Positions 30,500 through 57,641 of a stretch of DNA of 64,000 bases are shown here, piece after piece. Below the pieces are notes generated by a model. That model saw only the letters and a program-made list of their open reading frames with translations. It searched no databases and had not been told where the DNA came from. Position numbers and translations under genes: made by a program. Source of the DNA: Candidatus Uhrbacteria bacterium (GTDB lineage Bacteria > Patescibacteriota > Patescibacteriia > UBA9934 > GWF2-40-263); contig JACPHU010000009.1 in the NCBI GenBank assembly GCA_016188495.1, positions 13,650-77,649 on the forward strand. The letters run 5' to 3'. Numbering within the stretch: position 1 is the first letter of the stretch; each line of letters opens with the position of its first letter.

Positions 30500-30536
30500 A
30501 ATTCTGTCAATAAATATTGACAGAATTGTTTTTTTC
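30500..30536 (+). terminator. Rho-independent terminator
   Basis: aattctgtcaata-aa-tattgacagaatt followed by gttttttt. Confidence 0.75.
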
Positions 30537-30614
30537 TGATAGATTTTTCCGTTCTGATTTCCGTTCATTTTGAATTAAACAGAGAACAATAAGGATAGAG
30601 AAAGGAGACGAGCG

Positions 30615-31448
30615 ATGTTGTCCATTTTATCTGAGTCTTATTCAATTCTGGCGTTTGCCGTCGTGGCGTTTTTCTGGTTTTCTTATAAGCTCATAGATCT
30701 ATGTGAGTCTTATCAACAGACGCCGGGTAAGTTGATTTTTGCGACGATTGTCAGTGTTATTAGCACTATCATTTGCTTCATCGCGGGATGGATTGAGGCT
30801 GACGACATTGGAAGGTCTATTCCTTATTTTAGTACCCTGGCCGTACTGCTCGCTTCTTCCTTTTCCTTGTATTTCATAAAAAGCATCCTGGGAAAGGTGT
30901 TGGATGGGTGGCTCTGGGGATGGAAGATCTTTTCTACTCTAGGATCGAAATTCTTTTCTCGATTTAAGAAATTCGACCGGCGACAGCTTGTTTCCGAGGA
31001 TCGCATGGCTCAGGCTGATCGGATCCTTGAGCTCGTTCCTTCTCTAGATCGCATCGATCTTCGAAGCAAGGTGGGCGAGATCGTCGCACACTTTCTGCCA
31101 ACACTCCATGAGCAGAAACAGCGATTGCAGCAGAAAATTGAAAGGGTCAAAACTCTTGGCAATGCCGATGTCGTGCGTGAAAGCCTGAAGGCTCTGGAGC
31201 AGCAGATGGTTCTCAACGGCAAAAATATCCAGTCCTGTCATGATTTTCTCAACGCGGCCGAAGCCAAGCTTCTCGCTGCCAGCGAAGATGGCCAAGGATT
31301 GGAAGGGCTTTCCGATCTGTTTACAGGTCTGCTTTCGCAGATTCAGGTGAAATGTTCGGCCCTCGAACAGACCAATCGTCAGTTGCAGGAGATCGATGCG
31401 CCAGTTACTGGATTTCAGAGAAACCAGACAGTTGGTCAGATCTCTTGA
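30615..31448 (+). CDS. Hypothetical membrane protein (four N-terminal TMs plus a coiled-coil tail)
   Basis: 277 aa with hydrophobic helices in the first 110 aa. SD aaggagacgagcg before the ATG. Confidence 0.5.
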   Translation: MLSILSESYSILAFAVVAFFWFSYKLIDLCESYQQTPGKLIFATIVSVISTIICFIAGWIEADDIGRSIPYFSTLAVLLASSFSLYFIKSILGKVLDGWLWGWKIFSTLGSKFFSRFKKFDRRQLVSEDRMAQADRILELVPSLDRIDLRSKVGEIVAHFLPTLHEQKQRLQQKIERVKTLGNADVVRESLKALEQQMVLNGKNIQSCHDFLNAAEAKLLAASEDGQGLEGLSDLFTGLLSQIQVKCSALEQTNRQLQEIDAPVTGFQRNQTVGQIS

Positions 31449-31464
31449 TCTTCAGAGAGAACGC

Positions 31465-31500
31465 AAACCGCATAAGTTGCATACTTATGCGGTTTTTCTT
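31465..31500 (+). terminator. Rho-independent terminator
   Basis: aaaccgcataag-ttgcata-cttatgcggttt followed by ttctt. Confidence 0.65.
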
Positions 31501-31524
31501 TATTGTGGTAAAATAATCGATGAT

Positions 31525-32082
31525 ATGCCTAAAGATGCACGATTTATTGATCCGGAGTCATCCAAAAAAAAGAGAGGCCGTGTTGAGACGCGTGAAGCGT
31601 CACCCGTTCCTTCTACATTGGAAACGGTTTCGGAACTTCCCTCCGCCGTTGAGACCAAGCAAGAACAACCCGAGCATTTTTTAGAAGGGGAAAGAGAGAT
31701 CGTACAAAAAGAAGCCTCATTGCCAGGCCGTCTTTCAACGACTCGCAAAACGGTTGCCAAGAAAAAAATTCAAGAAGATCGTTTGGAAGAGGAAATTGAG
31801 GATATTTTAGAAGAGGATCTAAAAGAATTATATTTATCTCTTCCTCCGAAAAAACAAGCCGAGTTCCGTTTGAAAGGAGAAGAAACGCGTTCACGCATTC
31901 GACAACTCGCCGGATCGTTGAAAATCAATGCAAAGAAAATTTTTCAACTGATCCGTGCGTGGTTAAAGGTGATTCCTGGCGTGAATCGATTTTTTCTTGA
32001 ACAGGCGGCGAAAATAAAAACAGATAAAATTTTGATGGTTGCAGAAGAAGAGCAAAAACAAAAACAAAAAGAAACCATGTGA
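31525..32082 (+). CDS. Hypothetical charged (Glu/Lys-rich) protein, ~185 aa
   Basis: Start moved to MPKDARF because ORF 31396 would read through the terminator. The stop overlaps the start of the following ATPase gene (ATGA). Confidence 0.45.
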   Translation: MPKDARFIDPESSKKKRGRVETREASPVPSTLETVSELPSAVETKQEQPEHFLEGEREIVQKEASLPGRLSTTRKTVAKKKIQEDRLEEEIEDILEEDLKELYLSLPPKKQAEFRLKGEETRSRIRQLAGSLKINAKKIFQLIRAWLKVIPGVNRFFLEQAAKIKTDKILMVAEEEQKQKQKETM

Positions 32083-34616
32083 TTTCCTTATTACAATTCG
32101 GCTTAGAAACAGATCCTCAATTGATTAAAACCGTAACAGCGTCGGCAGATTTTTCCATCCCGCCGTTTATCTTGTGGGGGTCGTTGCTGTTGGTTTTTTT
32201 GTTTTGTCTATTGTACGTATTGAGGTTTTTTATCAGACGTCTTTCGCTGGCCAGACAGGCTACGTTTCATCGTGTCACACTGCTGATTACGTTGCCAAAA
32301 TTCAGGCGCGAAGAAGAAAGTGAGAAAGGTCCTTCTAAGGATCAGGTCAAAGAAGCGATTGCTGCTGCGGAATCTTTTTTTTCCTCTCTTGGAGGTTTAA
32401 CGGTGCATCATGGTTTTAAATCGTGGCTGTTTGGACGTCATGACGAGTTTTCTTTTGAGATTGTCGTTGAGAAGAAATTGATCAAATTTTTTGTTACCGT
32501 TCCTGTCGAATTGCGTGATTTTTTGGAACAGCAATTATCGGCTGCTTATCCTGATTCGTTTACAGAAGAAGTCGAAGATTACAATATTTTTAAACCGGAC
32601 GGTGTCATTTTAGGAAGCCACCTCGTGTTGCGCCGTATCAGTTCCTTTCCGATTAAAACCTATACACAATTAGAGAAAGATCCTTTAAATACGATCACAA
32701 ACGTATTATCAAAAATTCCTGACGGAGACGGAGCCGCCTTTCAATTTCTTGTTCGGTCTTCTCAAGCAAAATGGAGAAACAGAGGAATAAAAATCGCTTC
32801 AAACATGCAACAGGGAATGAAGCTTGAAGAGGCTCTTCGTGGAAAAAAGAAAGGCAAGAGCAGTAGCTGGATGGAGTTGTCCGGCTTGAGCAGTCCCAAT
32901 AAGTCTCAAGAACCGCAGAAAGATTATCGTCTTTCTCCTTTAGAAGAACAGGTAGTCAAAGGGTTGGAAGAAAAGGCGAGTAAAGCCGGAATGGATGTGT
33001 GTATTCGGTTAGTGACTTGTTCGAAGTCAGCTGCTTCTGCACAAACTCTTTTGCAAAACATGCTCAACGTGTTTGCTCAATACAATATTTATGAGTATGG
33101 CAATTCGTTTGTAAAATCACTTCCTCATCGCAAAACGCGTTTAATTAAAGATTTTATTTATCGAGCTTTCGATGAGCAGCGAACGATCGTTCTCAACGCA
33201 GAAGAAATGGCGAGTTTATGGCACCTTCCTTTGCCTTGGACAGAGACTCCTAATATCAAATGGTTAGGATCTCGAAAAGGTCCCGCACCATCAGGGATTC
33301 CCGGACCAGAGGAAGGGGATATTGAGTTGGGTTACAACATGTTTCGCGGTATTAAAACTCCTATTTGGATGAACGCGATTGATCGTACTCGTCACATGTA
33401 CATCGTCGGAAAGTCGGGTTCTGGTAAATCTCAGCTGATTGCCAGGCTTGCGATTCAGGACATTCAGGCAGGACACGGCGTGGCCGTGGTAGAGCCTCAT
33501 GGAGATTTGGTGGAGTTGATTTTAAGGAATATTCCAAAAGAGCGGGTGGATGACGTTATTTTGTTTGATCCTTCCGATCTGGAACGACCGATGGGTCTTA
33601 ACATGCTTGAAGCCCCCACAGAGACCATGAAGGATTTTGCGGTTCAAGAAATGATTTCTGTTTTTTATAAATTGTTTCCACCGGAAATGATTGGTCCGAT
33701 GTTCGAGCACCAGATGCGCAATTTCATGCTGACTCTGATGTCCGACTTTGAAAATCCAGGGACGATTGCAGAGATCCCCCGCATGGTCACAGATAAAAAA
33801 TTTCAAGATAAGTGGCGGGCAAAATTGAAAGATCCTGTCGTTCGAAGCTTTTGGGAGGATGAAATTGATAACACCAGCGACTATCATAAATCAGAAATGA
33901 TGGGATATCTCGTTTCTAAAGTAGGACGTTTCGTGGAAAACGAGATGATGCGCAATATTATCGGCCAATCAAAGTCCAGCTTCAGTTTTCGTGAAGTGAT
34001 GGACCAGAAGAAAATTTTGCTCGTTAACCTTTCCAAGGGAAAAACAGGAGATGTAAATGCGGAACTATTAGGTTTGGTTATCGTGTCCAAGCTGCAGATG
34101 GCCGCTTTGACGCGTGCGGATATTCCAGAAGATCAACGCCATGATTTTTATCTGTATATTGACGAGTTCCAAAATTTTATTACGGATTCCATCGCAACCA
34201 TTTTGTCTGAAGCGCGTAAATATCGTTTGAATTTGATTATCGCCCATCAATACATCGGGCAGCTGGTAAAAAATAACGATACGAAAATTCGCGAAGCGGT
34301 GTTTGGAAACGTGGGAACAAACTTTGTGGCCCGTATCGGTCCTGAGGACGTAGAAACCTTAGGGAAAATTTATTCCCCCGAGTTTTCTGGATACGATCTT
34401 ATCAATTCAGACAAATTTACCTGGTACGTAAAAATGATCGTTGATAATGCCCAACAGAAACCGTTTACCTTGAACTTTACCCCTCCGCCAAAAGGCGACA
34501 CAGAGTTGGCCTCAGCCATCAAACAGCTATCGCGTCTAAAGTACGGAAGAGATCGTGCGCTGGTGGAAGCCGAAATTATGGAGCGCACTCAATTAGATGG
34601 TTCAGGGCGTTTATAG
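32079..34616 (+). CDS. TraD/VirD4/TraG-family (T4SS coupling-protein-like) P-loop ATPase with a membrane-anchored N-terminal domain of unknown function
   Basis: 845 aa with two N-terminal TMs. Walker A MYIVGKSGSGKSQLIARLA, Walker B FYLYIDEFQNF, downstream LNLIIAHQYIGQL. The first ~400 aa have no recognisable homology. Confidence 0.6.
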   Translation: MISLLQFGLETDPQLIKTVTASADFSIPPFILWGSLLLVFLFCLLYVLRFFIRRLSLARQATFHRVTLLITLPKFRREEESEKGPSKDQVKEAIAAAESFFSSLGGLTVHHGFKSWLFGRHDEFSFEIVVEKKLIKFFVTVPVELRDFLEQQLSAAYPDSFTEEVEDYNIFKPDGVILGSHLVLRRISSFPIKTYTQLEKDPLNTITNVLSKIPDGDGAAFQFLVRSSQAKWRNRGIKIASNMQQGMKLEEALRGKKKGKSSSWMELSGLSSPNKSQEPQKDYRLSPLEEQVVKGLEEKASKAGMDVCIRLVTCSKSAASAQTLLQNMLNVFAQYNIYEYGNSFVKSLPHRKTRLIKDFIYRAFDEQRTIVLNAEEMASLWHLPLPWTETPNIKWLGSRKGPAPSGIPGPEEGDIELGYNMFRGIKTPIWMNAIDRTRHMYIVGKSGSGKSQLIARLAIQDIQAGHGVAVVEPHGDLVELILRNIPKERVDDVILFDPSDLERPMGLNMLEAPTETMKDFAVQEMISVFYKLFPPEMIGPMFEHQMRNFMLTLMSDFENPGTIAEIPRMVTDKKFQDKWRAKLKDPVVRSFWEDEIDNTSDYHKSEMMGYLVSKVGRFVENEMMRNIIGQSKSSFSFREVMDQKKILLVNLSKGKTGDVNAELLGLVIVSKLQMAALTRADIPEDQRHDFYLYIDEFQNFITDSIATILSEARKYRLNLIIAHQYIGQLVKNNDTKIREAVFGNVGTNFVARIGPEDVETLGKIYSPEFSGYDLINSDKFTWYVKMIVDNAQQKPFTLNFTPPPKGDTELASAIKQLSRLKYGRDRALVEAEIMERTQLDGSGRL

Positions 34617-34832: not shown

Positions 34833-35453
34833 ATGATGCAGGAATACGACATTGACGAAACTCTTTTTGATTGCGAGCCCGATGTTGAAGTTCATGCCAA
34901 TAAACGTGAACATGCAGATACTCGTAATCGACTGGCTTTGCAGATGCTCAAACATACCAGAGACAGCCTCAATCACGTGATCCAGTTATTAGAAGAGGGC
35001 GATACGACCAAAGCAACCCGGCAATTGGTAGATTTTGTTTCTCGTAAAAAAACGACGGAGGCTGACTTAGAATCGGCTACGGGCTCGCGGGTGATCGAGG
35101 GGGTTTTTGACGGCCAGGGAATGGTTGGAGGAGATGGGATCCGATATCTTGTTTCAGAAAATTACGCCTCTAAGTCCAAGCTGGTTGAGGGAGACATGCT
35201 TAAGCTGATCATTCAGCCGGATGGAACTCATATTTTCAAGCAAATAGGGCCTGTTGAGCGTCGTCGGTTTGTTGGAGTGCTCTCACAAGATTCATCCACA
35301 CAAAGTCCCGTTGTTGTCTGTGGCGACTGCGTGTATAAAGTACTGGCAGCCAGTGTTTCTTATTTTAAAATAATTCCTGGCGATGAGGTCGTGATCCTCC
35401 TTCCTGCGGGTGGAACCTCTGTTTGGGCGGCGGTCGAACGCTTAAATTCATAA
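34833..35453 (+). CDS. Hypothetical protein (~206 aa)
   Basis: Start set at MMQEYD, immediately after the repeat element; ORF 34722 would begin inside the element. Confidence 0.45.
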   Translation: MMQEYDIDETLFDCEPDVEVHANKREHADTRNRLALQMLKHTRDSLNHVIQLLEEGDTTKATRQLVDFVSRKKTTEADLESATGSRVIEGVFDGQGMVGGDGIRYLVSENYASKSKLVEGDMLKLIIQPDGTHIFKQIGPVERRRFVGVLSQDSSTQSPVVVCGDCVYKVLAASVSYFKIIPGDEVVILLPAGGTSVWAAVERLNS

Positions 35454-42961: not shown

Positions 42962-43825
42962 TTATGCAAGCAGTCCGAGTCCGACCATCCCGAGGGCTAC
43001 GGCAATGAGTATGAGAATGCGAGAAGGAGGAGTCTGTTTGCTTTTGAATAATGGACTGAATAACAATACGATGAGTGGTTGTAGGCCGCTGACGGTGCTC
43101 ACGAGTCCGGCGGATCCCAATCGAATAGCTCCCATCCGCAGGAGGCTGGCCGTAAGATCAAGAAGTTCATTCAGTACAAAGCGTTTGCGTAGGCGAGTAT
43201 TTTTTAGGGCCATTGTAATTTGACGGCGCGCAGGTGGGACAGCAAGAAGAAGTGTTATTGTGGCGATAAGGACACCAACAGACACCCAGGCAATCCCATC
43301 AAGAATAGAGGTGTGTCTGAAAATGTATTCTAAGAGAGTAAATTCAATAGCCGTTGTAAGCGAGGCGAGCAGCATCCATCCTACGGCAACAGCCGGGATG
43401 TGGTGTGAGCCGGTGGGTTGGTAGCTCGTCAAAAATGAACTTGCAATGAGGAAGATCATGGCGATGTATTCCTTGACAGCGAGTTGTTCACCCAGGAAGA
43501 GCCAGGTAGAAAAGACAACAAGAACGGGTGCGAGATTCCATAGCAGGATGACGTTTGCCGTATGTGTTTTTTCGAGAGCTTTGTAGTACGGCCAATAGAC
43601 GAACAATCCGACGGCTCCACCAAGCAGAGCAGCGACGACAATAGGGGGTGAGGGTGCGGCAATGTTGAGGAGGGGAATGAGTAACACAGGAATCGAGCCA
43701 AATAGGCCTGTGACAAACGTGAGGACATTTGGATCTTGTCGCTGACGTTCGAGGAGATCTGAATCGATAAGGTTGGTGAACCCCCAGAGAGTCGTTGCAA
43801 CGAGTGTGAGTAGAAGCCATGTCAT
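42962..43825 (-). CDS. EamA/DMT-superfamily transporter (10 TM)
   Basis: 287 aa, highly hydrophobic, with duplicated EamA-like halves. Confidence 0.7.
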   Translation of the reverse strand: MTWLLLTLVATTLWGFTNLIDSDLLERQRQDPNVLTFVTGLFGSIPVLLIPLLNIAAPSPPIVVAALLGGAVGLFVYWPYYKALEKTHTANVILLWNLAPVLVVFSTWLFLGEQLAVKEYIAMIFLIASSFLTSYQPTGSHHIPAVAVGWMLLASLTTAIEFTLLEYIFRHTSILDGIAWVSVGVLIATITLLLAVPPARRQITMALKNTRLRKRFVLNELLDLTASLLRMGAIRLGSAGLVSTVSGLQPLIVLLFSPLFKSKQTPPSRILILIAVALGMVGLGLLA

Positions 43826-44254
43826 AGTTCATACATGATAACAAAAATTACCTAGAGTTCTAGGTGATTTTTGTGGTGAGCCCAAGGAAGGCTGTCATGA
43901 ACTACCTCGAACGAGCACGCGAGCTCATGCCAGTTATGATGGGATGGAATCGCGACGTTGCAGGGTTTTTGGAGCGTCCTCGTGGCATCCAGAGCCTTGT
44001 GGTGACGTACTAATGCGACGTATTATTGGAGGCATCAATCAAAACATAAACCTATGGGAACAGAACGAAAAGACGCCTTGATCAATGTGGTGCAACATCT
44101 GCCCGCAGCAGCGCAACGTCCAGCCGATAAACCAGCAGGGACGGTCGTTACGAGTAGTGGCGAGCGTGTCACATTGGGCGAGAAGCCGAGTCACAACACC
44201 GCCATACTCTCTACTCAACAGCGCATGAACACAAAGAAGCAGGGATAATGAGAT

Positions 44255-44677
44255 ATGCAAAGCCACTTTGTGATAGACCCATCCGTAAAAGATCAATTTG
44301 TAGAACTCCGAGCGCAAGGCATGAGCTTTGCGTCGATTTCGTCGCGCCTTAACGTCTCGAAAGGTACGCTCGTCGCGTGGAGCAAGGAGTTGAAGGACGA
44401 ACTCGGTAACATGCGACAAATCCAGCTTGAAGCCATACGTGAGAAGTTCCGCATGGGCTCGCAGCGTCGCATGGAGCTATTCGTCAAGCAGTTGGATGCC
44501 GTGGAAGGTGAACTGGCCACTCGCACCCTCGACATCGTCTCAACGGAAAAACTATTCGATATGCTTGTGAAGCTCGGCCATGAGCTTAACGCGACCGATG
44601 CACCGCTTACGTTCAAGGAACAATCAAAGGAGTTCGTTCTCGACGACATCGCGTGCATGTCTGTTTGGGAAGCATAG
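44255..44677 (+). CDS. HTH DNA-binding protein (phage/ICE-type regulator or terminase-small-subunit-like)
   Basis: 140 aa with HTH QGMSFASISSRLNVSKGTLVAW. Confidence 0.5.
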   Translation: MQSHFVIDPSVKDQFVELRAQGMSFASISSRLNVSKGTLVAWSKELKDELGNMRQIQLEAIREKFRMGSQRRMELFVKQLDAVEGELATRTLDIVSTEKLFDMLVKLGHELNATDAPLTFKEQSKEFVLDDIACMSVWEA

Positions 44678-44827
44678 AAAAATTTGAACATTCCTGTACG
44701 AAAAATGACCGTCCTCGCGGCGGTTGTTTTGATATTTTGAAACGTTCATCAGATGCCAGTAAATAAAAAGAGCGCATCCGACGAGACGTAAGCCGAGTGG
44801 CTCTTGCCCCGCGCGGATGCGCGAGTG

Positions 44828-45439
44828 TCACTTGAGGTGGATCAACTCCATACCGCTCGCTTCCATGTCCGAGTCGTCGGTATGAGTGTCTCCACCCTCG
44901 ACGAGCACAGAGGAATAGTACCCATCGCCACGCCCATACGAGTCGATGAACAGCTTGTGGCCGTTCTCGAACTCGATGACGAGTGCCACGCCGTTCTGCG
45001 TCATGGCAACCACATGGCCGTTGCCAGCGAGTGCGAGTTGCTTGGACAAGAAGGCGGAGACGGCCTCCGCGTGCTGTCGTGCGGCCTCTTCGTGCCTTCG
45101 TTTCTCCTCGTCCTTCCGCCATTGCTCGTTCTTGGCCTTCGCACTCGCATTGGTCAGGGTCATGTGGACACCGACCTTCTCGACCTCGTGCCACCCGCCG
45201 CCTTCGATCTTCTTCCGCTGCTGTTTGACCATGCGCGGCCGCTTGACGATGATTTCCTCGACCTCAGGACTCCCGTGCTGGATGCTGCGGTTCTTCCCGT
45301 CCATGATGAGTCGAGACACGTCTCCACCGTCTGATGCAAGGACGAGCTCCTCGCCCTCAACGCAAGCCGAGGAGACCATCTGCCGCCCAAGAACCCATCC
45401 GCCCTTCCCGATTTCCGCAATCAACTCCTGAATGTCCAT
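44828..45439 (-). CDS. Hypothetical protein (~203 aa)
   Basis: Start MDIQELIAEI preceded by SD gaggag. Competing same-region frames have Leu/Arg-rich, low-complexity composition typical of GC-rich noise. Confidence 0.45.
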   Translation of the reverse strand: MDIQELIAEIGKGGWVLGRQMVSSACVEGEELVLASDGGDVSRLIMDGKNRSIQHGSPEVEEIIVKRPRMVKQQRKKIEGGGWHEVEKVGVHMTLTNASAKAKNEQWRKDEEKRRHEEAARQHAEAVSAFLSKQLALAGNGHVVAMTQNGVALVIEFENGHKLFIDSYGRGDGYYSSVLVEGGDTHTDDSDMEASGMELIHLK

Positions 45440-45570
45440 GATGACTCCTCGGTATATGTGTGAGAGGTGGTATGCCTGCAAGTGAAAGAAACGACTGAAA
45501 AATATACCACAAAACAGCCTTTTGTCAATGGCCGCATGGTCGTTTTTGTGATAAAATGGCCTAAAATCCT

Positions 45571-47286
45571 ATGGAACAGCCAAATACAGACATACAACGC
45601 GTTGCAGAGCTCGTAGCACGCCTCCAAGCCCGTTTTGGTGCTCAAGGCGTCGCGGATGCTGCGGGTAAGGGTGAGTCCCTTCGATACGTCATGTATGTCC
45701 GTAAGAGCACGGATACGGCCGACAAGCAGCAGCGCACCATCGGCGACCAAATCGCCTCGTGCAAGGAATACGCCGACCGCTTCGGGTTGCGTTGGACAGA
45801 GCTCATCCATGAGGAGGAGTCCGCCATGGTCTCCGATGGTCGTCCAAAGTTTCGAGCCATGCTAAACGCCATCAAGGCGGGCACGTTCGATGCCATCCTT
45901 GCATGGGCTCCAGACCGCCTTTCGCGCAACATGAAGGAAGCGGGCGAGATTATCGACATGCTCGACCGAGGCGACATCAAAGACCTCAAGTTCGCCAACG
46001 GGTTCGTATTCGCCAATGAACCGTCGGGCAAGATACTACTCGGTATCACGTTTGTCATGGCCAAGCAGTACAGCGACCAACACTCCCAAAACGTCAGGAA
46101 CGCGATTCATCGAAAGACCGCCGAAGGTAAGTGGGCAGGGGGCCGCGTTAAGCACGGCTACTACCGAAGCACCGCGCATTACCTTCTTCCCGACGGCGAG
46201 AACCATGAGCTCATCAAGGACGTCTTCCGCCTTCGTCTTGAAGGCACGCCGCAGAAGGACATCGCGGCATACCTCATCGAACGCGGCTATCCCGTCCAGA
46301 CGCCGCATACTAAGCATCGCAAGCTCGTCATCGACGACAAGTTCGTCTCGGATATCCTTCACGACGCGTTCTATGTCGGCGCCATGAAGTTCAGTAAACA
46401 ATTCGTCAACCTATTCGACAAGTACGACTTCGTGCCAGCAGTCTCGATCGACGACTTCGAGCGACTCTACAAGAGCGAGGGCGAGAAAATGGGAATCGAC
46501 CTCAAGAAAATTCTCAATCCGCGTGTACAGATCAAGGCCGCGCTCATGCAACAATTTGTTACATGCGGACGATGCGGAAAGTTCATGTCAACGGGCATTA
46601 CCAAGGGCAAATACTATTTTCGTTGTGATTCACCCAAGGCCGTCTTCCCGATGCATGGCAAGTCTACTCGTGCGAAAGTGGTACTCGACGCCTTATACGA
46701 GTTTCTGGAACATCATCCGCTCATCACCAATGCGGGCTACAAGCATTACGTCGCCGAGATGCAGCACATCCTGTCCGAGCAAAGCAAGGAAGCGGAACGG
46801 GAGTTAAAGTCGCTCGTCGCGCAACGTCAGCACGCCGAGGAGCGCATGGAGGACATGAAGGAACTTGCGCGAGGAGCAAAGGGTGACAAGGTGCTTGTGA
46901 AGGAATATCAGGCCGACATGAAGGCGAGCCTTGCAAAGGCAAAGGAACTGTCGGCACAAATTACGAAGCTCAAGATTGAACACCTCAACCCAAAGGAAGC
47001 AATCGCTACATTTGAAGAGTTCCATGAACTGTTTGCAAATCTTGCTCAACTCATACAAAAAATAGACAGCATGGCGGATTTGGATAGTATCATCAAAAAA
47101 ATCTTCATGAACGTCACGGTCACCGACCAAAAAGTCACTCAAATAACACAAAACTCCCCTTTCAGGGAGCTGTGTGTGGACGCCGATTCGGCGATGGTGA
47201 CCCTTCGGAGACTTCCTTGGAACCAATTTATGGAAGAGTTGAGGATGTGGATGCAGTTTCAGGAAATGTGTTTGGCTGAAATGTAA
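45571..47286 (+). CDS. Large serine recombinase (integrase)
   Basis: Resolvase catalytic domain YVMYVRKSTDTADKQ (nucleophilic Ser) and APDRLSRN, a recombinase domain, a Zn ribbon CGRCGKF...FRCDSP, and a C-terminal coiled coil. Confidence 0.85.
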   Translation: MEQPNTDIQRVAELVARLQARFGAQGVADAAGKGESLRYVMYVRKSTDTADKQQRTIGDQIASCKEYADRFGLRWTELIHEEESAMVSDGRPKFRAMLNAIKAGTFDAILAWAPDRLSRNMKEAGEIIDMLDRGDIKDLKFANGFVFANEPSGKILLGITFVMAKQYSDQHSQNVRNAIHRKTAEGKWAGGRVKHGYYRSTAHYLLPDGENHELIKDVFRLRLEGTPQKDIAAYLIERGYPVQTPHTKHRKLVIDDKFVSDILHDAFYVGAMKFSKQFVNLFDKYDFVPAVSIDDFERLYKSEGEKMGIDLKKILNPRVQIKAALMQQFVTCGRCGKFMSTGITKGKYYFRCDSPKAVFPMHGKSTRAKVVLDALYEFLEHHPLITNAGYKHYVAEMQHILSEQSKEAERELKSLVAQRQHAEERMEDMKELARGAKGDKVLVKEYQADMKASLAKAKELSAQITKLKIEHLNPKEAIATFEEFHELFANLAQLIQKIDSMADLDSIIKKIFMNVTVTDQKVTQITQNSPFRELCVDADSAMVTLRRLPWNQFMEELRMWMQFQEMCLAEM

Positions 47287-47436
47287 CTAATCGTGGAATT
47301 ACTGTTTGATTGTGGAGATGGCAAATTTGAGACAATTCCAATAATTGCCCCAATTCCCAACAAACTCCAAATGATTATTTTTCGACGTATAAAATCTAAG
47401 CTTGTTTTCCAATAATCTTGCCATAAGATCGTTGTT

Positions 47437-47991
47437 TTATTTGTTCTTTTCAAGAAATAAATTTCCAGTAAGAATATAAACCAAAATTATTTTTAAACTT
47501 AATCCTAAAAGGATCAACAATATTGAAAAACCAACGAGAAAAGAGATATCGTAGAACAAAATATATTGATTGATAACCATTTTTTCTTGTGTGTGTTCAC
47601 GTATAGACCAATATCCTGAGCAATTAGTCCCAAAGATTGAGCATTCAGTGATAGGGCCATCTTTAGAACTAATTTCAGAAACAAACTTAGAAAATTCTTT
47701 TGGACATTTTTCTTCAAACCAACTTCGATAAAGACTAATTTTGTTGGTAATACTTGGTTGATTAAAACTTTCAAAAATAAAACTTTCATTTTCCTTTATT
47801 TCATTTGGAATATCCTTCTCACTCAAAACACAACCTTCTTGAGCTGGAGATTTTAATGTAATTGCTTGATATCTATACTCATTATCGAATAACTTAAGAG
47901 AAGACAAAACTAATAGAAGCGATAATCCAAGATAAAAAATTTTTAATAATCGAAACCATGGTGAACTAAAAAATCCTTTTGTTGTTTCCAT
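47437..47991 (-). CDS. Hypothetical membrane protein in AT-rich cargo (~184 aa)
   Basis: Start METTKGFF. TM at the N-terminus and near the C-terminus. A 150+ codon ORF in ~28% GC DNA is unlikely by chance. Confidence 0.5.
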   Translation of the reverse strand: METTKGFFSSPWFRLLKIFYLGLSLLLVLSSLKLFDNEYRYQAITLKSPAQEGCVLSEKDIPNEIKENESFIFESFNQPSITNKISLYRSWFEEKCPKEFSKFVSEISSKDGPITECSIFGTNCSGYWSIREHTQEKMVINQYILFYDISFLVGFSILLILLGLSLKIILVYILTGNLFLEKNK

Positions 47992-48034
47992 ATTTTCATT
48001 GTATTGACCCAGATGGAATCTTTGAGAGATCACT

Positions 48035-48187
48035 ATGCCACCTTATGCACCAGATCATAATCCGATTGAACATGTTTGGAATACAGCGAAAGGGGAAACA
48101 ACAAACATTCAACAGGAAAACTTTGAAGCAATGAAAATAACTTTTCATAATTTTATTGATGGACGAAATTTCAATTATGCAATTTAA
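48035..48187 (+). pseudogene. IS630/Tc1-mariner-family transposase C-terminal remnant
   Basis: Translates to MPPYAPDHNPIEHVWNTAKGETTN...FHNFIDGRNFNYAI, the conserved PPYSPDLNPIE catalytic-E region. No upstream DDE domain. Confidence 0.7.
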
Positions 48188-48212
48188 CAGTTTGTTTTGG
48201 GATGGCTATAAA

Positions 48213-48671
48213 TTAGAAAGAGGATATCCAACATAACTCAATTTTTTCAAAAAGTTTTTGCTGATTTTGAGATGAATTCCATTTTTTCAGATTTTCAAAA
48301 AATAAATCTTCGTAATCATTACCTGCTAAAGTATTTAAAGCTTCTAAGTAAACATGTACTTCATTATAAATAGAACTACATGAGCTAGCTTCAGTGAACC
48401 TATTATCATTTACTTGATTGATAAATTCTTGTTCTACTAAATTTAAAAATTCTTTTTTAAGCTCACCTTCATTATTTAAAGAAAAATTATTAATCTGTCT
48501 GTGAAGTTCTTTATTATCCTCATCCAATATATCTGTTTTTCCATTTAAAATAACTTTCTCAGTTTCTAGTGTACCAATTTTGTTCTTCAATATTTCAATT
48601 TCAGTGCATAAGTATGCAATCATTCCAATAAAACTGATTCCAACAATAATCCACAATAAATATTTTTTCAT
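48213..48671 (-). CDS. Hypothetical protein with N-terminal TM/signal anchor and coiled coil (152 aa)
   Basis: MKKYLLWIIVGISFIGMIAYL then a heptad-like region; AT-rich. Confidence 0.45.
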   Translation of the reverse strand: MKKYLLWIIVGISFIGMIAYLCTEIEILKNKIGTLETEKVILNGKTDILDEDNKELHRQINNFSLNNEGELKKEFLNLVEQEFINQVNDNRFTEASSCSSIYNEVHVYLEALNTLAGNDYEDLFFENLKKWNSSQNQQKLFEKIELCWISSF

Positions 48672-49030
48672 ATCTTAGTTAAAAATAATTTAATCATCAT
48701 GAGAGGTTGGCAATAAAGCCCCCAAAATCATAAGTCCTAAAAAGACTAAAATTGCATCTAAAAACATATTATTTTCTTTCTTTTAAAAACACAAAGCCCT
48801 CCGCCAGCCGCAGTCTTTCGACTGCCTGTATCCATTTCTGGGTACAGCCATCCCTGGTTGCTGAACGAAGGGTCCAGTATCAGGGATGGATTTGTGCCAT
48901 GCCTTACATGTGCAAGGTTTAGGCATCTATTTTAATTGTGAGTTTAGTGTAGAGAATTGAGACAAACATGACAAGCAAATAATCAAAAATCTTTAAAATT
49001 TAAAGGATTTTTGTTAAAATATACTCATAA

Positions 49031-49783
49031 ATGAAAATGATTATGAGAAAAGATTTAAAAGAAGAATTCGAATCTCTGATAAAAGAGGGATACGAAATTA
49101 CAAGAATTGCCGATGAAGGTCTAGAACAACACTCGGCTACCGCAACACTAATCCATGAAATTCATCATAAGTTTATAATGTGGAAACAAAGTGCGAAGGA
49201 TCTTTTAAAAGATGAGGCTAAAAATGAAGAATTAGATATTGGATTTCTATTTGAAGGAGATGGAGTACCTTTAATCAAAGCTGGACCAGAATACAGCGAC
49301 CCAATGAGTGAACGATCACAAAAATTATTTACAAACATTCGTATAGCAGCCTCCAGTCATTTGAGAAAAATAAAAGAAATTTATGAAGAGGTGGAGAAAA
49401 ATTTTAAGATTAAAAAATCATTTATTGTCAGAATTAAAAATATTTCTCTTTCCAAGGAAGATTGTTTATTAAAAATAAATGATGGTGAAAAAATAATCTT
49501 CTTTAAATCAAAAAAAGGAAAAGAAGATTTTGAAAAAGAAACCAAACAGTTTAAAATTTTGTACCATCTTTGGGAGTTTCGACAAGAAAAAAAAGGAAGT
49601 AGCATTTTAAAAAAAAGTGAAATTGTTACACTAAAAAATCTTCAAATTTGTAGTCAAAGTAAAAGTGCATCCGCAGTCAGTAAAACTATTGAGAGATTAA
49701 ATAAAAGATTTAAAAAAGAAGGGGTAACTATAGAGATAGAATGTGAAAATGAAAAATGTCGTCTAATTATAGAAAAGACCTAG
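49031..49783 (+). CDS. Hypothetical Lys-rich protein (250 aa)
   Basis: Long ORF in ~28% GC DNA. No recognised motifs. The C-terminal ~70 aa may be a winged-helix-like domain; weak. Confidence 0.45.
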   Translation: MKMIMRKDLKEEFESLIKEGYEITRIADEGLEQHSATATLIHEIHHKFIMWKQSAKDLLKDEAKNEELDIGFLFEGDGVPLIKAGPEYSDPMSERSQKLFTNIRIAASSHLRKIKEIYEEVEKNFKIKKSFIVRIKNISLSKEDCLLKINDGEKIIFFKSKKGKEDFEKETKQFKILYHLWEFRQEKKGSSILKKSEIVTLKNLQICSQSKSASAVSKTIERLNKRFKKEGVTIEIECENEKCRLIIEKT

Positions 49784-49957
49784 ACGGTTTCTTGACTATT
49801 TCTACGACATTATTTTTTTCTATTTTTTTAAAAAACAGTAGGAATTTGTAAAAAGTTTAAAAAAATTCGACATCAAAACAAATATTTAAAACTTATCACA
49901 AAAAACAGTTGCTAAAGTCGAAGTATAAAAGCTTCGATTTTTTTATTCTAAATTTTT

Positions 49958-50218
49958 ATGACTATGACTACGCACGGGATTCAAGAAAATGAAATTTACC
50001 GAACATCGGATTTTTCTCAGGCAATTGCACTTTATTGTCTTGATTTTGTTCTGGAAGCAGTTGATAAAACAACGCCAAATAGGTGTGGATTCTTGTTTAA
50101 ACGGACATGCGAACTTGATCGGGCTATCGAATGGTTCTGGAAACGTGAGCTTCGTATTGAACCTCAGGCTTATTTTCAGGCTTCTAAGGTCTTGCGGACG
50201 CGTCTACATGACCGTTAA
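49958..50218 (+). CDS. Hypothetical small protein (86 aa)
   Basis: ORF upstream of the primase gene. A second ~56-aa ORF at 50224-50394 overlaps the primase start. Confidence 0.35.
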   Translation: MTMTTHGIQENEIYRTSDFSQAIALYCLDFVLEAVDKTTPNRCGFLFKRTCELDRAIEWFWKRELRIEPQAYFQASKVLRTRLHDR

Positions 50219-50359
50219 GACCTATGCTCAGCATTGCCCGAACAAAGGAACTCATCGGCTATGCATCTATCTCGGATGAACAGGCGGAAGCTATCCGAGA
50301 CCAGTTTCGTGATCTCGCAGAATTGATTTTTATAAATTGGAAAACTAACTTGAAACAAT

Positions 50360-52249
50360 ATGACAATGAATCCTCAAACAATCCCAATTAGTGAATACCT
50401 TGACCGGAAGGGTATCGAATACCGGGAACAAGAAAACGAGCTGATAGCACGCTGTATTTTCCACGACTGTGACGATGATAGTAAAGGTATAGAGGCACAT
50501 TGGTATATCAACAAGCACACAAGCCAGTACGACTGCAAAAAATGTGGTCAACAAGGCAACATTTTTACTCTAAGAGAACATTTTGACGATCCAATGTCAG
50601 AAGTCCTTCTTGATGGTGCAAAAGCACTTAACGACCACCCTATAAAGAATGAGTTATTAAATACAGCACAAAACATCTGGAACTCATCAACACAGGTTCC
50701 CAAAGAGTTTGCCTATACGATAAAAAAGAGAATCTCTACGCACGGATCACGCTTCAAGGATGGTAATTTGGTTCTCCCAATGTATAACGGAAACGGCACG
50801 CTAATTTCTCTTCAATTCATTCAAGCAGACGGAAAGAAAAAGTTTCTGCCTGGAGGTAAAACAGTCGGGTCTTATTACATCATTGGCGAAGTGAAAGACG
50901 TTATATGTATTGCGGAAGGATTTGCAACCGCGGCTAGCATTCTTGAAGCAACAGGACATGCTGTCGCCATTGCCTTTTCTGCCGGGAATCTTAAAGCAAC
51001 GGCTCAGGCGATCAAAAACAAGTACACTAATGTAAAGCTAATTGTATGCGCGGACATTGACGATTATGGTCTTACCAAGGCCAAAGAGGCAGCTCAGGTC
51101 GTCAGTGCCTTTCTCGCTATACCTGTCTTTAAACCTGAAGAACGGATCGATGAAAAACCTCCTACGGACTTTAATGATCTGGCTATTTTGCAGAGTGCAG
51201 AAAAAGTGAAGAAAACAATCGAATCGGCAGAAAAAGTAAAAAACAAGTATCAATTCACAGCACTTGCGGACTTATTAGAGGAACCGGAAGAAAAAATTGA
51301 GTGGATCGTTGAAGATCTTCTTCCTCATGGTGGTTTCTCCATCATCGTCGCGAAACCAAAAGTTGGTAAATCTACACTGGTAAGACAACTTGCGTTTTGT
51401 GTTGCAAGCGGAAGCACTTTTCTAGGAAGAACTACGAGCAAGGGGCGCGTTCTCTACTTATCGCTTGAAGAAAAACGTAGCGAAGTGCGGAACCATTTTA
51501 GAATGCTTGGAGCAACCAGAGAGGAAGACATCGGGATTTGTTTTGATCAAACACCAGAAAATGCTCTCGAGTGGTTAAGAGAAGAAATCGATCGATCCGC
51601 GCCAGTGCTGGTCATTATTGATACCTTATTCCGATTCGCACGCGTTTCTGATGTAAATGACTATGCAAAAACACTGGCCGCTCTTGATCCGCTTCTGTCG
51701 CTTGCACGAAGTCACTCCGTACACGTTATGGGCGTTCATCACGCCAGAAAAGGTGATGGGTTTGGGGCAGATACTACATTGGGTTCAACGGCCATTTTTG
51801 GAAGTGTAGATACAGCTATCGTTTTAAAACGAACCGATAGCAAACGCACAGTCGAAACCCAGCAACGCTATGGGGTGGATATGGAACCAACCGTTCTAAC
51901 ATTTGATCCTGATACAAAACGCACCGAGTTAGGCGAAATAAAACAACAGGACGATGTTCAGGGTATCAAAGATGAGATTATTGCTTTTCTTCAATCTGAA
52001 AGTGAATCATCCACAGAAAAGACGATCACTGAAAATACAGAAGGTCGGACTAAGTTAAAACGAAAGGCTTTACGCGATCTTGTTGTCGAAGGTTTGGTGG
52101 CGCGAACAGATTCCGGAAAGAAAGGCGATCCCTACCATTATTCTTGTTCCCTTGTTCCCGCTATATATACGGAACAAGGGAACAAGCAATCGAATGATGG
52201 TGTTGAGCGAAAAACGGACGATCAAATTCTTGAAGAACTTGGTTTATAA
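50360..52249 (+). CDS. DNA primase (CHC2 zinc finger plus TOPRIM) fused to a C-terminal RecA-like/P-loop (AAA_25, RepA-like) domain
   Basis: Zn finger CIFHDCDDDSKGIEAHWYINKHTSQYDCKKCGQQG. TOPRIM VICIAEGFATAAS...VCADIDDYG. P-loop GGFSIIVAKPKVGKSTLV...LYLSLEE. Confidence 0.75.
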   Translation: MTMNPQTIPISEYLDRKGIEYREQENELIARCIFHDCDDDSKGIEAHWYINKHTSQYDCKKCGQQGNIFTLREHFDDPMSEVLLDGAKALNDHPIKNELLNTAQNIWNSSTQVPKEFAYTIKKRISTHGSRFKDGNLVLPMYNGNGTLISLQFIQADGKKKFLPGGKTVGSYYIIGEVKDVICIAEGFATAASILEATGHAVAIAFSAGNLKATAQAIKNKYTNVKLIVCADIDDYGLTKAKEAAQVVSAFLAIPVFKPEERIDEKPPTDFNDLAILQSAEKVKKTIESAEKVKNKYQFTALADLLEEPEEKIEWIVEDLLPHGGFSIIVAKPKVGKSTLVRQLAFCVASGSTFLGRTTSKGRVLYLSLEEKRSEVRNHFRMLGATREEDIGICFDQTPENALEWLREEIDRSAPVLVIIDTLFRFARVSDVNDYAKTLAALDPLLSLARSHSVHVMGVHHARKGDGFGADTTLGSTAIFGSVDTAIVLKRTDSKRTVETQQRYGVDMEPTVLTFDPDTKRTELGEIKQQDDVQGIKDEIIAFLQSESESSTEKTITENTEGRTKLKRKALRDLVVEGLVARTDSGKKGDPYHYSCSLVPAIYTEQGNKQSNDGVERKTDDQILEELGL

Positions 52250-52352
52250 CATTCTCAGACATTATAAGAAATTCTAGGAGATATCCCAATAACCTAACTC
52301 GTCTAATCCTTAATGATTTCGGTCAAAACAAAAGTGAAACAGAGGTAAATTT

Positions 52353-52976
52353 ATGGCAAGAGGCACTTGTGAGGGGCGCACAAAAATATCAATCTTTTGG
52401 CTACGACAAAAGGGATATCTGACTCCTGATATGCCTTGGCGATGGGACTCCTTGAGTTGGACAAACACTTATTCAGGCGAGAGTGCTGGGAGTTTGAGTT
52501 ATCAAATCAAGCTTGATGAGAACAAAGAACCAAACAGCAAAGTAGGGTATATGAGGTTGATGTATACCAATACGAGCGCTTGGTCGGGTGAAAAGACTGA
52601 AATTGATTACGAGATTCCTATTGTCACCACAGGATGCAATTATGGAGGCATTCGTTTCTGGTTCAGATGTCCTCTTAACGCAAACGGCGTTTACTGTGGA
52701 AGACGGATTGGGGTTTTATACAAGATTTCACAGTATTACGGTTGTCGCCATTGCGGAGACCTTGTGTATGCTGCGCAAAATGAAAAAAAGAGTTCTAGGG
52801 ACATGGTTTGCTGCCCTGATCTTGATAAAGCCCACGACAATATCAGACGCTTCCATTACAACGAAAAGCCGACGAAAAAGTACAGAAAATATCTCAAATT
52901 GGAGCAAAAATTTAATGATCAGATCCAGGGATGGATGATTCGCATGGCTTCAGATGATAAAGATTTTGTGCTATGA
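52353..52976 (+). CDS. Hypothetical protein with a Cys4 zinc-ribbon (207 aa)
   Basis: CPLNANGVYCGRR...CRHCGDLVY. Confidence 0.45.
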   Translation: MARGTCEGRTKISIFWLRQKGYLTPDMPWRWDSLSWTNTYSGESAGSLSYQIKLDENKEPNSKVGYMRLMYTNTSAWSGEKTEIDYEIPIVTTGCNYGGIRFWFRCPLNANGVYCGRRIGVLYKISQYYGCRHCGDLVYAAQNEKKSSRDMVCCPDLDKAHDNIRRFHYNEKPTKKYRKYLKLEQKFNDQIQGWMIRMASDDKDFVL

Positions 52977-53139
52977 TACAAGTGTTGACCCAATGCTTTC
53001 ATGCCCGTTTTTTGATCATTTTTGTTGTCCATAATGGGCGGCTTCTGCCAACAAAGTGGTCTTCGGGCTATGCGTTGGGTCAACCAGAGCCGCCCTTTTG
53101 GTTATTAGGATGTAAGAAATTGTAAGATACATAGATCAC

Positions 53140-54684
53140 ATGAAAGCCATCATCTACACACGTGTTAGCTCTAACGAGCAGGTTAAAGGAACCTCACTCG
53201 AAGACCAAGAAACCAAATGTCGAGAGTATTGTGCTCAAAAAAACATTGAGGTTTTGAAAGTTTTTCGAGAAGAGGGTGAGTCTGCCAAAACTGCGGATCG
53301 TACCGAGTTTTTAAGAGCTTTAGAATTTTGTCGAAAGAATAAAAGTAAAGTCGATATTTTTGTTGTGGTTAAAGTGGATCGCTTTGCTAGAAATACAGAA
53401 GACCATTTTGGAGTACGTAAAATTCTACTCGACTACGGTGTGTCTTTGCATTCCGTCACCGAACCAATAGGAAACAGTCCAGTTGAAAAGCTACTTGAGA
53501 CCGTTCTTGCTGGCACAGCAGAATTTGATAATGCAATCCGCTCACAGAGAAGTATTGATGGGATGATCGCACGCGTTCGACAAGGCATCACACCTTGGAA
53601 ACCGCCGATTGGATATTTAAGTAACCAATCAAAAAAACGAGGAGAAAAGAAAAACGAACCTGACGAAATAGATCCTGCAATTTTCCCCATTATTCAACGA
53701 ACACTAAAGCGTTTTTCCAGAGAGGAGATTGAGCAGTCGGAATTATGTGCTTATTTGGATCAGGAAGGTCTATCAAAAATTCGAGGTCGAAAAACTACCA
53801 AACAGATGGTTGAAAAAATTATCGGTCAGTATTTGAAATTTTACGCTGGTATAATCATGAACCCTTGGCTTGAAGGTGAAGAGATCAGGGGATTGCATCG
53901 TGCGATGATTACCGAAGACGAAATGCATCAGATTATCGCCATTCGGACAGGTAAATATATTAAGAAACAGCCACGTAAGAGTTTTAACCCACTTTTTCCT
54001 CTAAAGAAAACAATCGTGTGTGGAACCTGTGACGGAAACCTCACAGCAAGTCGATCAAAAGGGAATGGGGGAGAGTACGGTTACTATCACTGCTACAGTC
54101 CGTCTTGTGAGATGCGAAATAGAACAATTGCGAAAGATATTGTGGAAAGGGAATTCATTCAGCTTTTACAAACTCTGAGACCAAGCAGACAGCATCTATC
54201 TCTACTTCGAGAAACTGTTATGGATCTTTGGGAGGAAAAAAGAGAATTATTTGAATCGGATGCGAGTAAATTTAAGAAACAACTCGATTCCCTCACAGTT
54301 AAGCGTCAGAGAATTTTTGATATGCGTGAGGACGGTTCGTATACCAAGGAAGATTTTTTGGAACGTAAAGCTGAGATCGATAATGAAATGGCCGCAGTTC
54401 GTATATCGTTGAATGAATCCAAGATTGATCAATTTGATATTGAAGCAGCGATCACTTACGCAACGAAGTTCGTTGAGAACCTTGATCGTCAATGGGTGGA
54501 TCTAAAAGATGATCTCAAACCTCGGTTCCAAAAACTGATTTTTCCAGAAGGAGTTCTTTATTTTAAGGATCATGGTTTTCAAACCACGAAATTGTCGCTG
54601 ATGTTACAACAAAAAGAGACCGCTCGTGATGAGCAGTCCCTTTTGGTGACCCCACGGGGAATCGAACCCCGATTTACAGGATGA
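53140..54684 (+). CDS. Large serine recombinase (integrase) overlapping tRNA-Glu
   Basis: MKAIIYTRVSSNEQ (nucleophilic Ser), VKVDRFARNTEDH, recombinase domain, Zn ribbon CGTCDGNL...YYHCYSPSCE, coiled coil. Its last ~41 nt overlap the 3' part of tRNA-Glu on the opposite strand. Confidence 0.85.
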   Translation: MKAIIYTRVSSNEQVKGTSLEDQETKCREYCAQKNIEVLKVFREEGESAKTADRTEFLRALEFCRKNKSKVDIFVVVKVDRFARNTEDHFGVRKILLDYGVSLHSVTEPIGNSPVEKLLETVLAGTAEFDNAIRSQRSIDGMIARVRQGITPWKPPIGYLSNQSKKRGEKKNEPDEIDPAIFPIIQRTLKRFSREEIEQSELCAYLDQEGLSKIRGRKTTKQMVEKIIGQYLKFYAGIIMNPWLEGEEIRGLHRAMITEDEMHQIIAIRTGKYIKKQPRKSFNPLFPLKKTIVCGTCDGNLTASRSKGNGGEYGYYHCYSPSCEMRNRTIAKDIVEREFIQLLQTLRPSRQHLSLLRETVMDLWEEKRELFESDASKFKKQLDSLTVKRQRIFDMREDGSYTKEDFLERKAEIDNEMAAVRISLNESKIDQFDIEAAITYATKFVENLDRQWVDLKDDLKPRFQKLIFPEGVLYFKDHGFQTTKLSLMLQQKETARDEQSLLVTPRGIEPRFTG

Positions 54685-54718
54685 GAACCTGCTGTCCTAA
54701 CCGTTAGACGATGAGGCC
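54644..54718 (-). tRNA. tRNA-Glu (anticodon CTC)
   Basis: Minus strand ggcctca-tc-gtct-aacggtta-ggac-a-gcagg-ttCTCat-cctgt-aaat-cgggg-ttcgatt-ccccg-tggggtc-a-CCA. U33 and A37 are present; the acceptor stem has two G-U pairs. Confidence 0.7.
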
Positions 54719-54867
54719 TTGAAGGAAGATTTATTGGAACGTGCCGAGAATATCATGAGTCTCGATCTTTTTCAAGATTCAAAAAACCACTTAATTTCTT
54801 CATGTACCTACGGACAGACAGGCGCGTCTGACATCCAATTGAGAACGTCCTATGATATAATGATCTT

Positions 54868-57512: not shown

Positions 57513-57641
57513 AGATCTCTACAAAACTCGCGATCTTGCCCTTCACGGGCGCCCGTCGACCCCGTTCTCCCTACTCTGAGTAGGGTTCTCGGTGCTCGAC
57601 AGCCCGTTCAAGGCAATCTCATCGAGTTTTGTAGAGATCTC
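57512..57641. repeat. MITE-like palindromic element, copy 2 (130 bp)
   Basis: gagatctctacaaaactcgcgatcttgcccttcacggg ... cccgttcaaggcaatctcatcgagttttgtagagatctc. The termini are homologous to copy 1; the interior differs. It begins inside the TAG stop of the upstream gene. Confidence 0.7.

Follow-up and report, generated by a model that had tools for sequence, protein, structure and literature searches.

The window analysed here is a 64-kb stretch of chromosomal DNA from Candidatus Uhrbacteria bacterium (Patescibacteria, class ABY1), and the subject of this text is an 845-aa open reading frame (ORF) encoding a membrane-anchored ATPase of the type IV coupling protein (T4CP) type, together with the small ORF directly in front of it. 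The window genes are of the housekeeping kind (LytR, HisRS, UvrABC, SNF2 helicase, RsmH, sigma factor, CysRS, DnaX and HrcA-DnaK-DnaJ). The locus is composed of the following features:

30615..31448, plus strand: ORF A, a 277-aa orphan membrane and coiled-coil protein; a lineage-specific insertion between cysS and ORF B
31525..32082, plus strand: ORF B, a 185-aa partner protein, identified by alignment with relatives, adjacency and junction sequence
32079..34616, plus strand: 845-aa DUF8128 + T4CP-type ATPase, identified by Pfam, an AlphaFold2 model, Foldseek and 100% identity to MBI2473370.1
34617..34816, no strand assigned: 200-bp element resembling a miniature inverted-repeat transposable element (MITE), between the ATPase gene and ORF D
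34836..35453, plus strand: ORF D, a conserved protein of ~205 aa between the ATPase gene and dnaX, linked by synteny only

An earlier sequence-only reading had placed ORF A, ORF B and the 845-aa ORF at precisely these coordinates, which were confirmed, and had taken them for a three-gene unit, which was not: no homolog of ORF A turned up in 80 related loci, and ORF A is missing from L091, the contig that carries a 96% ortholog of the ATPase. The three-gene operon was dropped on these grounds of synteny and conservation. The conserved module is ORF B plus the 845-aa ATPase, with ORF D and dnaX after them in its class.

The ATPase consists of one N-terminal transmembrane helix at residues ~27-52, the domain DUF8128 at residues ~58-412 and a TrwB-like nucleotide-binding domain at ~415-800. 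The motifs read from the sequence beforehand are all in place, namely Walker A VGKSGSGKS (441-450) and Walker B LYIDEF (692-697) followed by IIAHQ; K450, D695 and E696 do not vary among 56 sequences with identity down to 38%, and a set of DUF8128 residues is likewise invariant in the family alignment. The N-terminal anchor of T4CPs typically has two transmembrane helices, and two had also been claimed for this protein, but only one strong hydrophobic segment was detected (residues 30-48; helix 27-63 in the AlphaFold2 model). The assignment of the C-terminal half to the TraD/VirD4-type P-loop proteins was substantiated by three T4CP models of Pfam, TrwB_AAD_bind (PF10412; 38.7 bits with a gathering cut-off of 20.5), T4SS-DNA_transf (PF02534; 35.9 bits, cut-off 20.1) and TraG-D_C (PF12696; 28.1 bits, cut-off 22), and the closest PDB sequences were TrwB (1e-7) and DotL (1e-6). 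FtsK_SpoIIIE (PF01580) gave no match at E values up to 0.1 and no FtsK-specific domain model matched; for HerA, DUF87 reached 21.9 bits, below its cut-off of 23.2, over residues 437-504 only, and the NCBIfam HerA model 19 bits with a cut-off of 970. The VirB4 profiles CagE_TrbE_VirB, AAA_10 and TraC_F_IV had no Pfam match in the ATPase, while matches of NCBIfam VirB4 and TraC covered the P-loop only and were far below cut-off. An FtsK or HerA clade with conserved synteny had been raised beforehand as a competing classification; the protein scores with T4CPs and not with FtsK or HerA, although its housekeeping synteny is conserved.

The AlphaFold2 model of the ATPase was generated from the 56-sequence alignment (pLDDT 86.6) and contains an all-helical insertion at ~515-642 in the nucleotide-binding domain. 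Foldseek with the full-length model returned TrwK/VirB4 first, with an E value of 5e-16 and more than 900 aligned columns; the TM score was only 0.31 because the orientation of the domains differs. TrwB came next, followed by Cagbeta and HerA; TrwB-deltaN70, including its all-alpha domain, was aligned nearly end to end over 410-460 columns with TMt 0.58-0.66.

The N-terminal half, which had been described as novel and could not be placed from the sequence, is the Pfam domain DUF8128 (PF26449). This assignment was taken from precomputed tables, which hold the exact window protein, whereas the local Pfam copy gave no match at all to the N-terminal half, PF26449 included; in the same tables the domain is present in all 120 homologs among the matches listed. 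In a search with the N-domain alone, 1781 representatives at 50% clustering were obtained, 878 of them with E values of 1e-10 or lower, and the domain also occurs in plasmid coupling proteins. It does not correspond to the known all-alpha domain of T4CPs, and no mention of DUF8128 was found in the papers searched. A separate model of residues 58-412 (pLDDT 86.2, pTM 0.85) was compared with the PDB by Foldseek, and the top nine matches were all TrwK/VirB4 (E values from 2e-5 to 2.5e-3, TMq 0.41-0.44), unrelated alpha+beta folds coming after them with E > 3e-3.

A tblastn search of the C-terminal domain against plasmids yielded 619 records, two of which were followed in detail. On the linear plasmid NZ_CP108778.1 of Embleya, an 812-aa protein aligns with window protein residues 121-802 (27% identity, E value 2e-65), and its N-terminal half matches the DUF8128 profile with an hhalign probability of 98.4%. 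This gene is part of a complete monoderm conjugation cluster encoding VirB6-like, PrgI, VirB4-like (with matches to AAA_10 and TraC_F_IV), DUF8128+T4CP, Replic_Relax and SLT+NlpC/P60 proteins. The same arrangement is found on the 28-kb Bacillus plasmid NZ_CP086062.1, where a 904-aa homolog (hhalign 98.9%) adjoins Replic_Relax and a VirB4-like ATPase. Since both plasmid clusters share the architecture, proteins that combine DUF8128 with a T4CP domain form a subtype of coupling proteins in Gram-positive-type conjugation systems, in keeping with the published origin of the Patescibacteria type IV secretion system (T4SS) in monoderm machinery (PMC12102498). Two further plasmid homologs were dropped as models, one from Bradyrhizobium that lacks DUF8128 and one from Sulfitobacter that is a short solitary protein.

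ORF B, which had correctly been called rich in Glu and Lys (28 Glu and 24 Lys, together 28% of its residues), begins with a charged stretch that is disordered and ends in a conserved helical part of ~90 aa. The predicted overlap with the ATPase gene is confirmed by the junction ACCATGTGATTTCC, in which the stop codon of ORF B overlaps the GTG start by the 4 nt GTGA. In 32 of the ~38 closest loci ORF B is adjacent to and co-oriented with the ATPase gene, often with the same 4-nt overlap, and the two genes are a translationally coupled pair. ORF B had no Pfam match and no PDB match, with a PDB profile search giving noise only, and a hit to the tail of the MobP3 relaxase of NCBIfam (19 bits, cut-off 150) was set aside as compositional. 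An ORF of 125-185 aa lies directly upstream of the ATPase gene in every group examined, and these small proteins start with a long disordered region and finish with a short, conserved helical one.

In a species-level genome scan at least 599 confirmed loci were found across Patescibacteria classes, including Uhr-, Magasanik-, Falkow-, Komeili-, Staskawicz-, Berkel-, Levy-, Curtiss-, Woese-, Roizman-, Davies-, Peregrini-, Peri- and Moranbacteria as well as genomes labelled Saccharibacteria. The ATPases of the 80 retained loci are all 39-77% identical to that of the window over nearly the full length, and dN in the family is 0.17-0.29; only dN is reported because dS is saturated. The gene contexts are housekeeping everywhere, with cysS and dnaX, with a Xer-type recombinase and DivIC, or with ComM and gyrBA. 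In the class of the window the conserved order is cysS, ORF B, ATPase gene, ORF D and dnaX, the last lying downstream of the ATPase gene in 30 related loci. In the Microgenomatia-like loci L039-L084 a Xer-type tyrosine recombinase recurs beside the ATPase gene in 11 loci, a PduO-type adenosyltransferase-like protein in 9 and DivIC in 8, for example at L084:8423-9433 and L075:9779-10348, and this recurrence may simply be synteny at class level. In Saccharimonadia, ComM and gyrBA stand beside the ATPase gene.

The absence of relaxase, VirB4 and pilus genes nearby, from which it had been concluded that the locus is not a canonical conjugation system, was borne out: no Pfam match to VirB4, relaxase or pilin was obtained among the ~35 ORFs scanned of the 56 window ORFs of at least 150 aa. 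Neither a relaxase nor a VirB4-based mating-pore cluster stands beside the ATPase gene in the scanned window ORFs or in the related loci examined, and no T4SS genes are linked to it in 85 loci examined.

A second paralog clade of DUF8128+T4CP proteins (P0228, P0238, P0248 and P0254) was separated with a neighbour-joining (NJ) bootstrap of 100%. Its members are 972-1133 aa long and 33-40% identical to the main clade, and in one locus a gene of this clade (L064:10223-13444) is located 1.7 kb downstream of the main-clade gene. Very long family members of 1.5-2 kaa were additionally observed (P0222 with 2006 aa, P0234, P0236, P0243, P0265, P0269 and P0270), whose C-terminal extensions of 700-1200 aa had no Pfam match; P0222 and P0236, the only long members in the tree, group with Saccharimonadia-type sequences.

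ORF D is aligned with its relatives at 45-61% identity, is adjacent to the ATPase gene in 21 related loci and carries the conserved motif EGVFDG...NYASKSKLVEGD. Its actual start lies near 34836; the 243-aa ORF from 34722 begins inside the MITE-like element and is an artefact of that insertion. Neither Pfam nor the PDB gave a match to ORF D, and a PDB profile search yielded noise only.

ORF A forms an orphan cassette, equipped with a promoter-like site (30517-30545) and flanking terminators of its own, and lies outside the conserved module. One terminator-like hairpin (30500-30527) stands in front of ORF A, after cysS, and the terminator that had been proposed after ORF A is indeed present as a hairpin with a 13-bp stem and a T run at 31465-31495. 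Four transmembrane segments had been assigned to the protein, of which three are clear as hydrophobic segments and the fourth is doubtful. In a search of 5.8 billion proteins, ORF A matched itself and one 73% relative only, and L003, L004 and L091 have no copy of it between cysS and ORF B.

The MITE-like repeat, rightly noted before as following the locus directly, is bounded by 19-bp perfect terminal inverted repeats, and a related second copy was detected at 57512-57641 (4 matches found for the repeat, with 0.07 expected). The two copies have ends of ~45 bp in common, including the 19-bp terminal inverted repeat, while their interiors differ (200 and 130 bp), and the RNA fold of copy 1 has a z value of -7. 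In L091 the element is missing and the gap is 52 nt. Moreover, two Logan contigs break 46 nt past the ATPase stop codon, which coincides with the element. Because both ORF A and the MITE-like element are missing from L091, they are recent insertions into the conserved array.

Further downstream in the window, a probable integrated mobile element was observed at ~44200-54720, which includes a stretch of 54% GC at 44-46 kb; Rfam gave no match on the GC-rich stretch 43800-45600. The following features were assigned to the mobile element:

45571-47286: large serine recombinase 1
48810-48925: LOOT RNA (74 bits), inside a 29% GC stretch
50360-52249: Toprim+AAA_25 primase/helicase-like protein
53140-54684: large serine recombinase 2
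54644-54718: tRNA-Glu, at the end of the element

The gene itself is already in the databases, the window ATPase being 100% identical to NCBI MBI2473370.1. Its 96% ortholog P0001 (KKR04481.1, Uhrbacteria GW2011_GWF2_39_13) is tabled as a T4CP (CONJScan t4cp1, 91.8% coverage, not near virB4) in the survey of Quinonero-Coronel 2025 (PMC12102498), where the 1.16-Mb genome of KKR04481.1 was scored 'No' for VirB4, with no VirB3, VirB6 or VirB8 and two VirB2-like genes only. In the same survey 5,713 VirD4-like T4CP homologs were counted in 2,918 of 3,035 genomes, of which homologs only 148 lie close to virB4; VirB4 itself was detected in 2,417 of the 3,035 genomes, and exaptation was considered possible since the t4cp of ML1 is non-essential (PMC12102498). 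The gene, its T4CP annotation and the idea of an orphan, perhaps exapted, protein are thus already public (PMC12102498), and the window gene adds nothing new because it has been deposited and annotated. No description was found of the VirB4-like fold of DUF8128, of the full-length link to plasmid coupling proteins, of the conserved small partner, or of the essential ML1 pair SEML1_0141/0142 as belonging to the ATPase family.

ML1 (Southlakia epibionticum) has two T4CP-like genes according to Tables S1/S2 of Wang 2023 (PMC10633639). One of them, SEML1_0293 (921 aa), was graded NE/NE/NE by transposon sequencing (Tn-seq), while the other, SEML1_0142 (1019 aa), a member of a core Patescibacteria-enriched family, was graded ES/ES/ES, with insertions decreasing from 114 in the input to 11, 11 and 9 (PMC10633639). 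The 139-aa SEML1_0141, located 12 nt upstream of SEML1_0142, was graded GD/ES/ES, with insertions decreasing from 9 to 0, and both genes go unmentioned in the main text of that study (PMC10633639). The gene order of ML1 equals that of locus L089 over about ten genes (site-2 protease, L20, L35, IF3, YifB, two small ORFs, the ATPase and two minus-strand genes). The L089 ATPase, P0326, contains DUF8128 and shares 41% identity with the window protein across residues 35-836, and the 141-aa ORF upstream of it is a member of the Saccharimonadia partner family. Where the t4cp of ML1 is described in print as non-essential, SEML1_0293 and not SEML1_0142 appears to be meant, and the paralog clade described above may correspond to SEML1_0293.

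The window ATPase is intact, strongly constrained, anchored by a single transmembrane helix, paired with a small upstream protein and kept at a fixed chromosomal position. It is probably a functional, vertically inherited T4CP-family ATPase of the DUF8128 subtype, acting as a motor on a macromolecular substrate at the membrane. The single N-terminal helix anchors a cytoplasmic body formed by DUF8128 and the TrwB-like nucleotide-binding domain, and by analogy with TrwB the protein may form a membrane-associated hexamer that would spend ATP in order to engage and push nucleic acid or protein there. For the small partner, a role as adaptor, regulator or substrate is conceivable. In Patescibacteria the gene would have become a chromosomal core gene uncoupled from the relaxase and virB4 cluster; in those with a T4SS, the ATPase may attach to it through its VirB4-like N-domain. 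For the Uhrbacteria lineage of the window, operation of the ATPase without a canonical VirB4 machine is most likely; independence is favoured there by the closest genome, which is VirB4-negative, and by T4CPs being more widely distributed than VirB4, while coupling to a T4SS is favoured by the homologs on plasmids, the likeness of the N-domain to VirB4 and the fact that the T4SS genes and SEML1_0142 are both essential in ML1.

A more far-reaching proposal, which is put forward tentatively and is itself rather doubtful, is that the small partner and the clade-1 DUF8128 ATPase constitute a phylum-wide, essential and T4SS-independent module for translocation at the membrane. Such a module would derive from a conjugative coupling protein of monoderms in which the VirB4-like N-domain was retained, and would have been repurposed for a core task of the host-dependent lifestyle, e.g. 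for passing nucleic acid or protein across the membrane through a non-VirB4 channel, and it would imply that the published dispensability of t4cp in Patescibacteria rests on the other paralog, SEML1_0293. Several points count against the main reading given above. The VirB4-negative call concerns a scaffold-level metagenome-assembled genome and may reflect incompleteness, and the search of the genome of the window itself comprised 64 kb. Essentiality in Saccharibacteria fits a T4SS-coupled role equally as well as a T4SS-independent one; moreover, the orthology of SEML1_0142 was established by synteny with P0326 and not by sequence, and the clade joining the window protein with the SEML1_0142-type group has an NJ bootstrap of 64% only. 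The four families of small partners show no detectable homology to one another (hhalign probabilities of at most 0.5%), and their common role is for this reason deduced from position only. In addition, the likeness to the VirB4 N-terminal domain comes from Foldseek only, at a TM score of ~0.42, as a DUF8128 profile search against PDB sequences gave no match and no signal was obtained when a Bacillus plasmid VirB4, including its N-domain, was compared by hhalign with DUF8128 and with the whole family. Due to these null results of the sequence-profile comparisons, the likeness is a fold-level lead and not proven homology.

Among the alternatives, the one that survives best, and that is possible although on balance unlikely, is that the ATPase is the missing coupling ATPase of a chromosomal Patescibacteria T4SS encoded elsewhere, docking on the inner-membrane complex by its VirB4-like N-domain and feeding protein or nucleic-acid substrates to it. 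The full-length homologs hold the T4CP position in the Bacillus and Embleya conjugation clusters and the N-domain resembles that of VirB4, the Patescibacteria T4SS cluster is without a recognizable coupling protein, t4cp genes are mostly far from virB4, and in ML1 the T4SS genes and SEML1_0142 are both essential. Against this stand the closest genome, which has the 96% ortholog and two VirB2-like genes but no match for VirB4, VirB3, VirB6 or VirB8, the occurrence of T4CP homologs in 96% of genomes compared with 80% for VirB4, and the 85 loci in which the ATPase gene is never linked to T4SS genes.

A role as housekeeping DNA translocase in the manner of FtsK/SpoIIIE, in segregation, dimer resolution or replication-linked transport, is hinted at by the neighbours only and is improbable. 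T4CPs, FtsK and HerA belong to one ATPase superfamily, the gene is essential in ML1, and dnaX (30 loci), the Xer-type tyrosine recombinase (11 loci) with DivIC, and gyrB-gyrA with ComM are suggestive neighbours, spread over three classes; but the window protein has neither an FtsK_SpoIIIE match in Pfam nor any FtsK-specific domain, FtsK is mentioned in transcriptome papers on the Saccharibacterium TM7x, synteny within a class reflects shared descent, and housekeeping neighbours are weak evidence because small genomes are dense in housekeeping genes. The sequence-only reading had also allowed for a remnant. That the ATPase is left over from a decaying integrated conjugative element, as might be thought of an orphan T4CP with no relaxase or VirB4 near it, a MITE and an orphan gene inserted beside it and an integrated element 10 kb downstream, is excluded for practical purposes by the intact ORF with invariant catalytic residues, the position between cysS and dnaX kept across the class, the phylum-wide conservation at 39-77% identity, the low dN (0.17-0.29) with saturated dS, and the syntenic ortholog that is essential in Tn-seq.

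Patescibacteria make up a large share of the diversity of bacteria, and no role has been assigned to most of the lineage-enriched genes that are essential in them. The ATPase family described here is nearly universal in the phylum and derived from conjugation coupling proteins, and SEML1_0142 and SEML1_0141 are both essential in the only Tn-seq data set of the phylum. Should the ATPase turn out to be the coupling motor still missing from the essential Patescibacteria T4SS, it would provide a handle on what that system transports; if it is VirB4-independent, as the VirB4-negative relative suggests, it is an exapted translocase.

In comparison with known systems, FtsK/SpoIIIE and HerA share the ASCE P-loop superfamily with the window ATPase, and HerA structures appear lower in the Foldseek list, but the window protein is without an FtsK_SpoIIIE match and DUF87 stays below cut-off. 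The T4CPs VirD4, TrwB and TraD are likewise membrane-anchored P-loop ATPases with an all-alpha insertion in the nucleotide-binding domain and with the succession of an RH-x-G-x-GxGKS Walker A, an hhhhDE Walker B and a Q motif. The window ATPase differs from them in having one transmembrane helix instead of two, in bearing the ~350-aa DUF8128 between the anchor and the ATPase domain, and in being encoded at a fixed chromosomal housekeeping position without relaxase or mating-pore neighbours; its identity to TrwB is only ~17%. VirB4/TrwK of R388 likewise carries its TrwB-like ATPase domain behind an N-terminal domain, ~800 aa in total, and is the best full-length Foldseek match as well as the only one matched confidently by the DUF8128-only model; unlike it, the window protein lacks CagE_TrbE_VirB and AAA_10, its C-domain scores as a T4CP, there is no profile-level similarity to a plasmid VirB4, and the TM score is only 0.31 for the full length and 0.42 for the N-domain. 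The Embleya and Bacillus plasmid proteins have the same two-domain architecture over the full length at 24-27% identity to the window ATPase, but they stand beside a VirB4-like ATPase, PrgI, a VirB6-like protein, Replic_Relax and a cell-wall hydrolase and have no small disordered partner upstream, whereas the Patescibacteria gene is chromosomal and solitary. The ML1 pair SEML1_0142/0141, for which alone essentiality has been shown, differs from the window pair in the longer C-terminal tail of the ATPase, in its neighbours ComM and gyrBA and in a small partner of another, non-homologous family, while both have in common a small ORF followed by a T4CP-like ATPase, of ~1000 aa in ML1, with the P-loop domain beginning at residue ~380.

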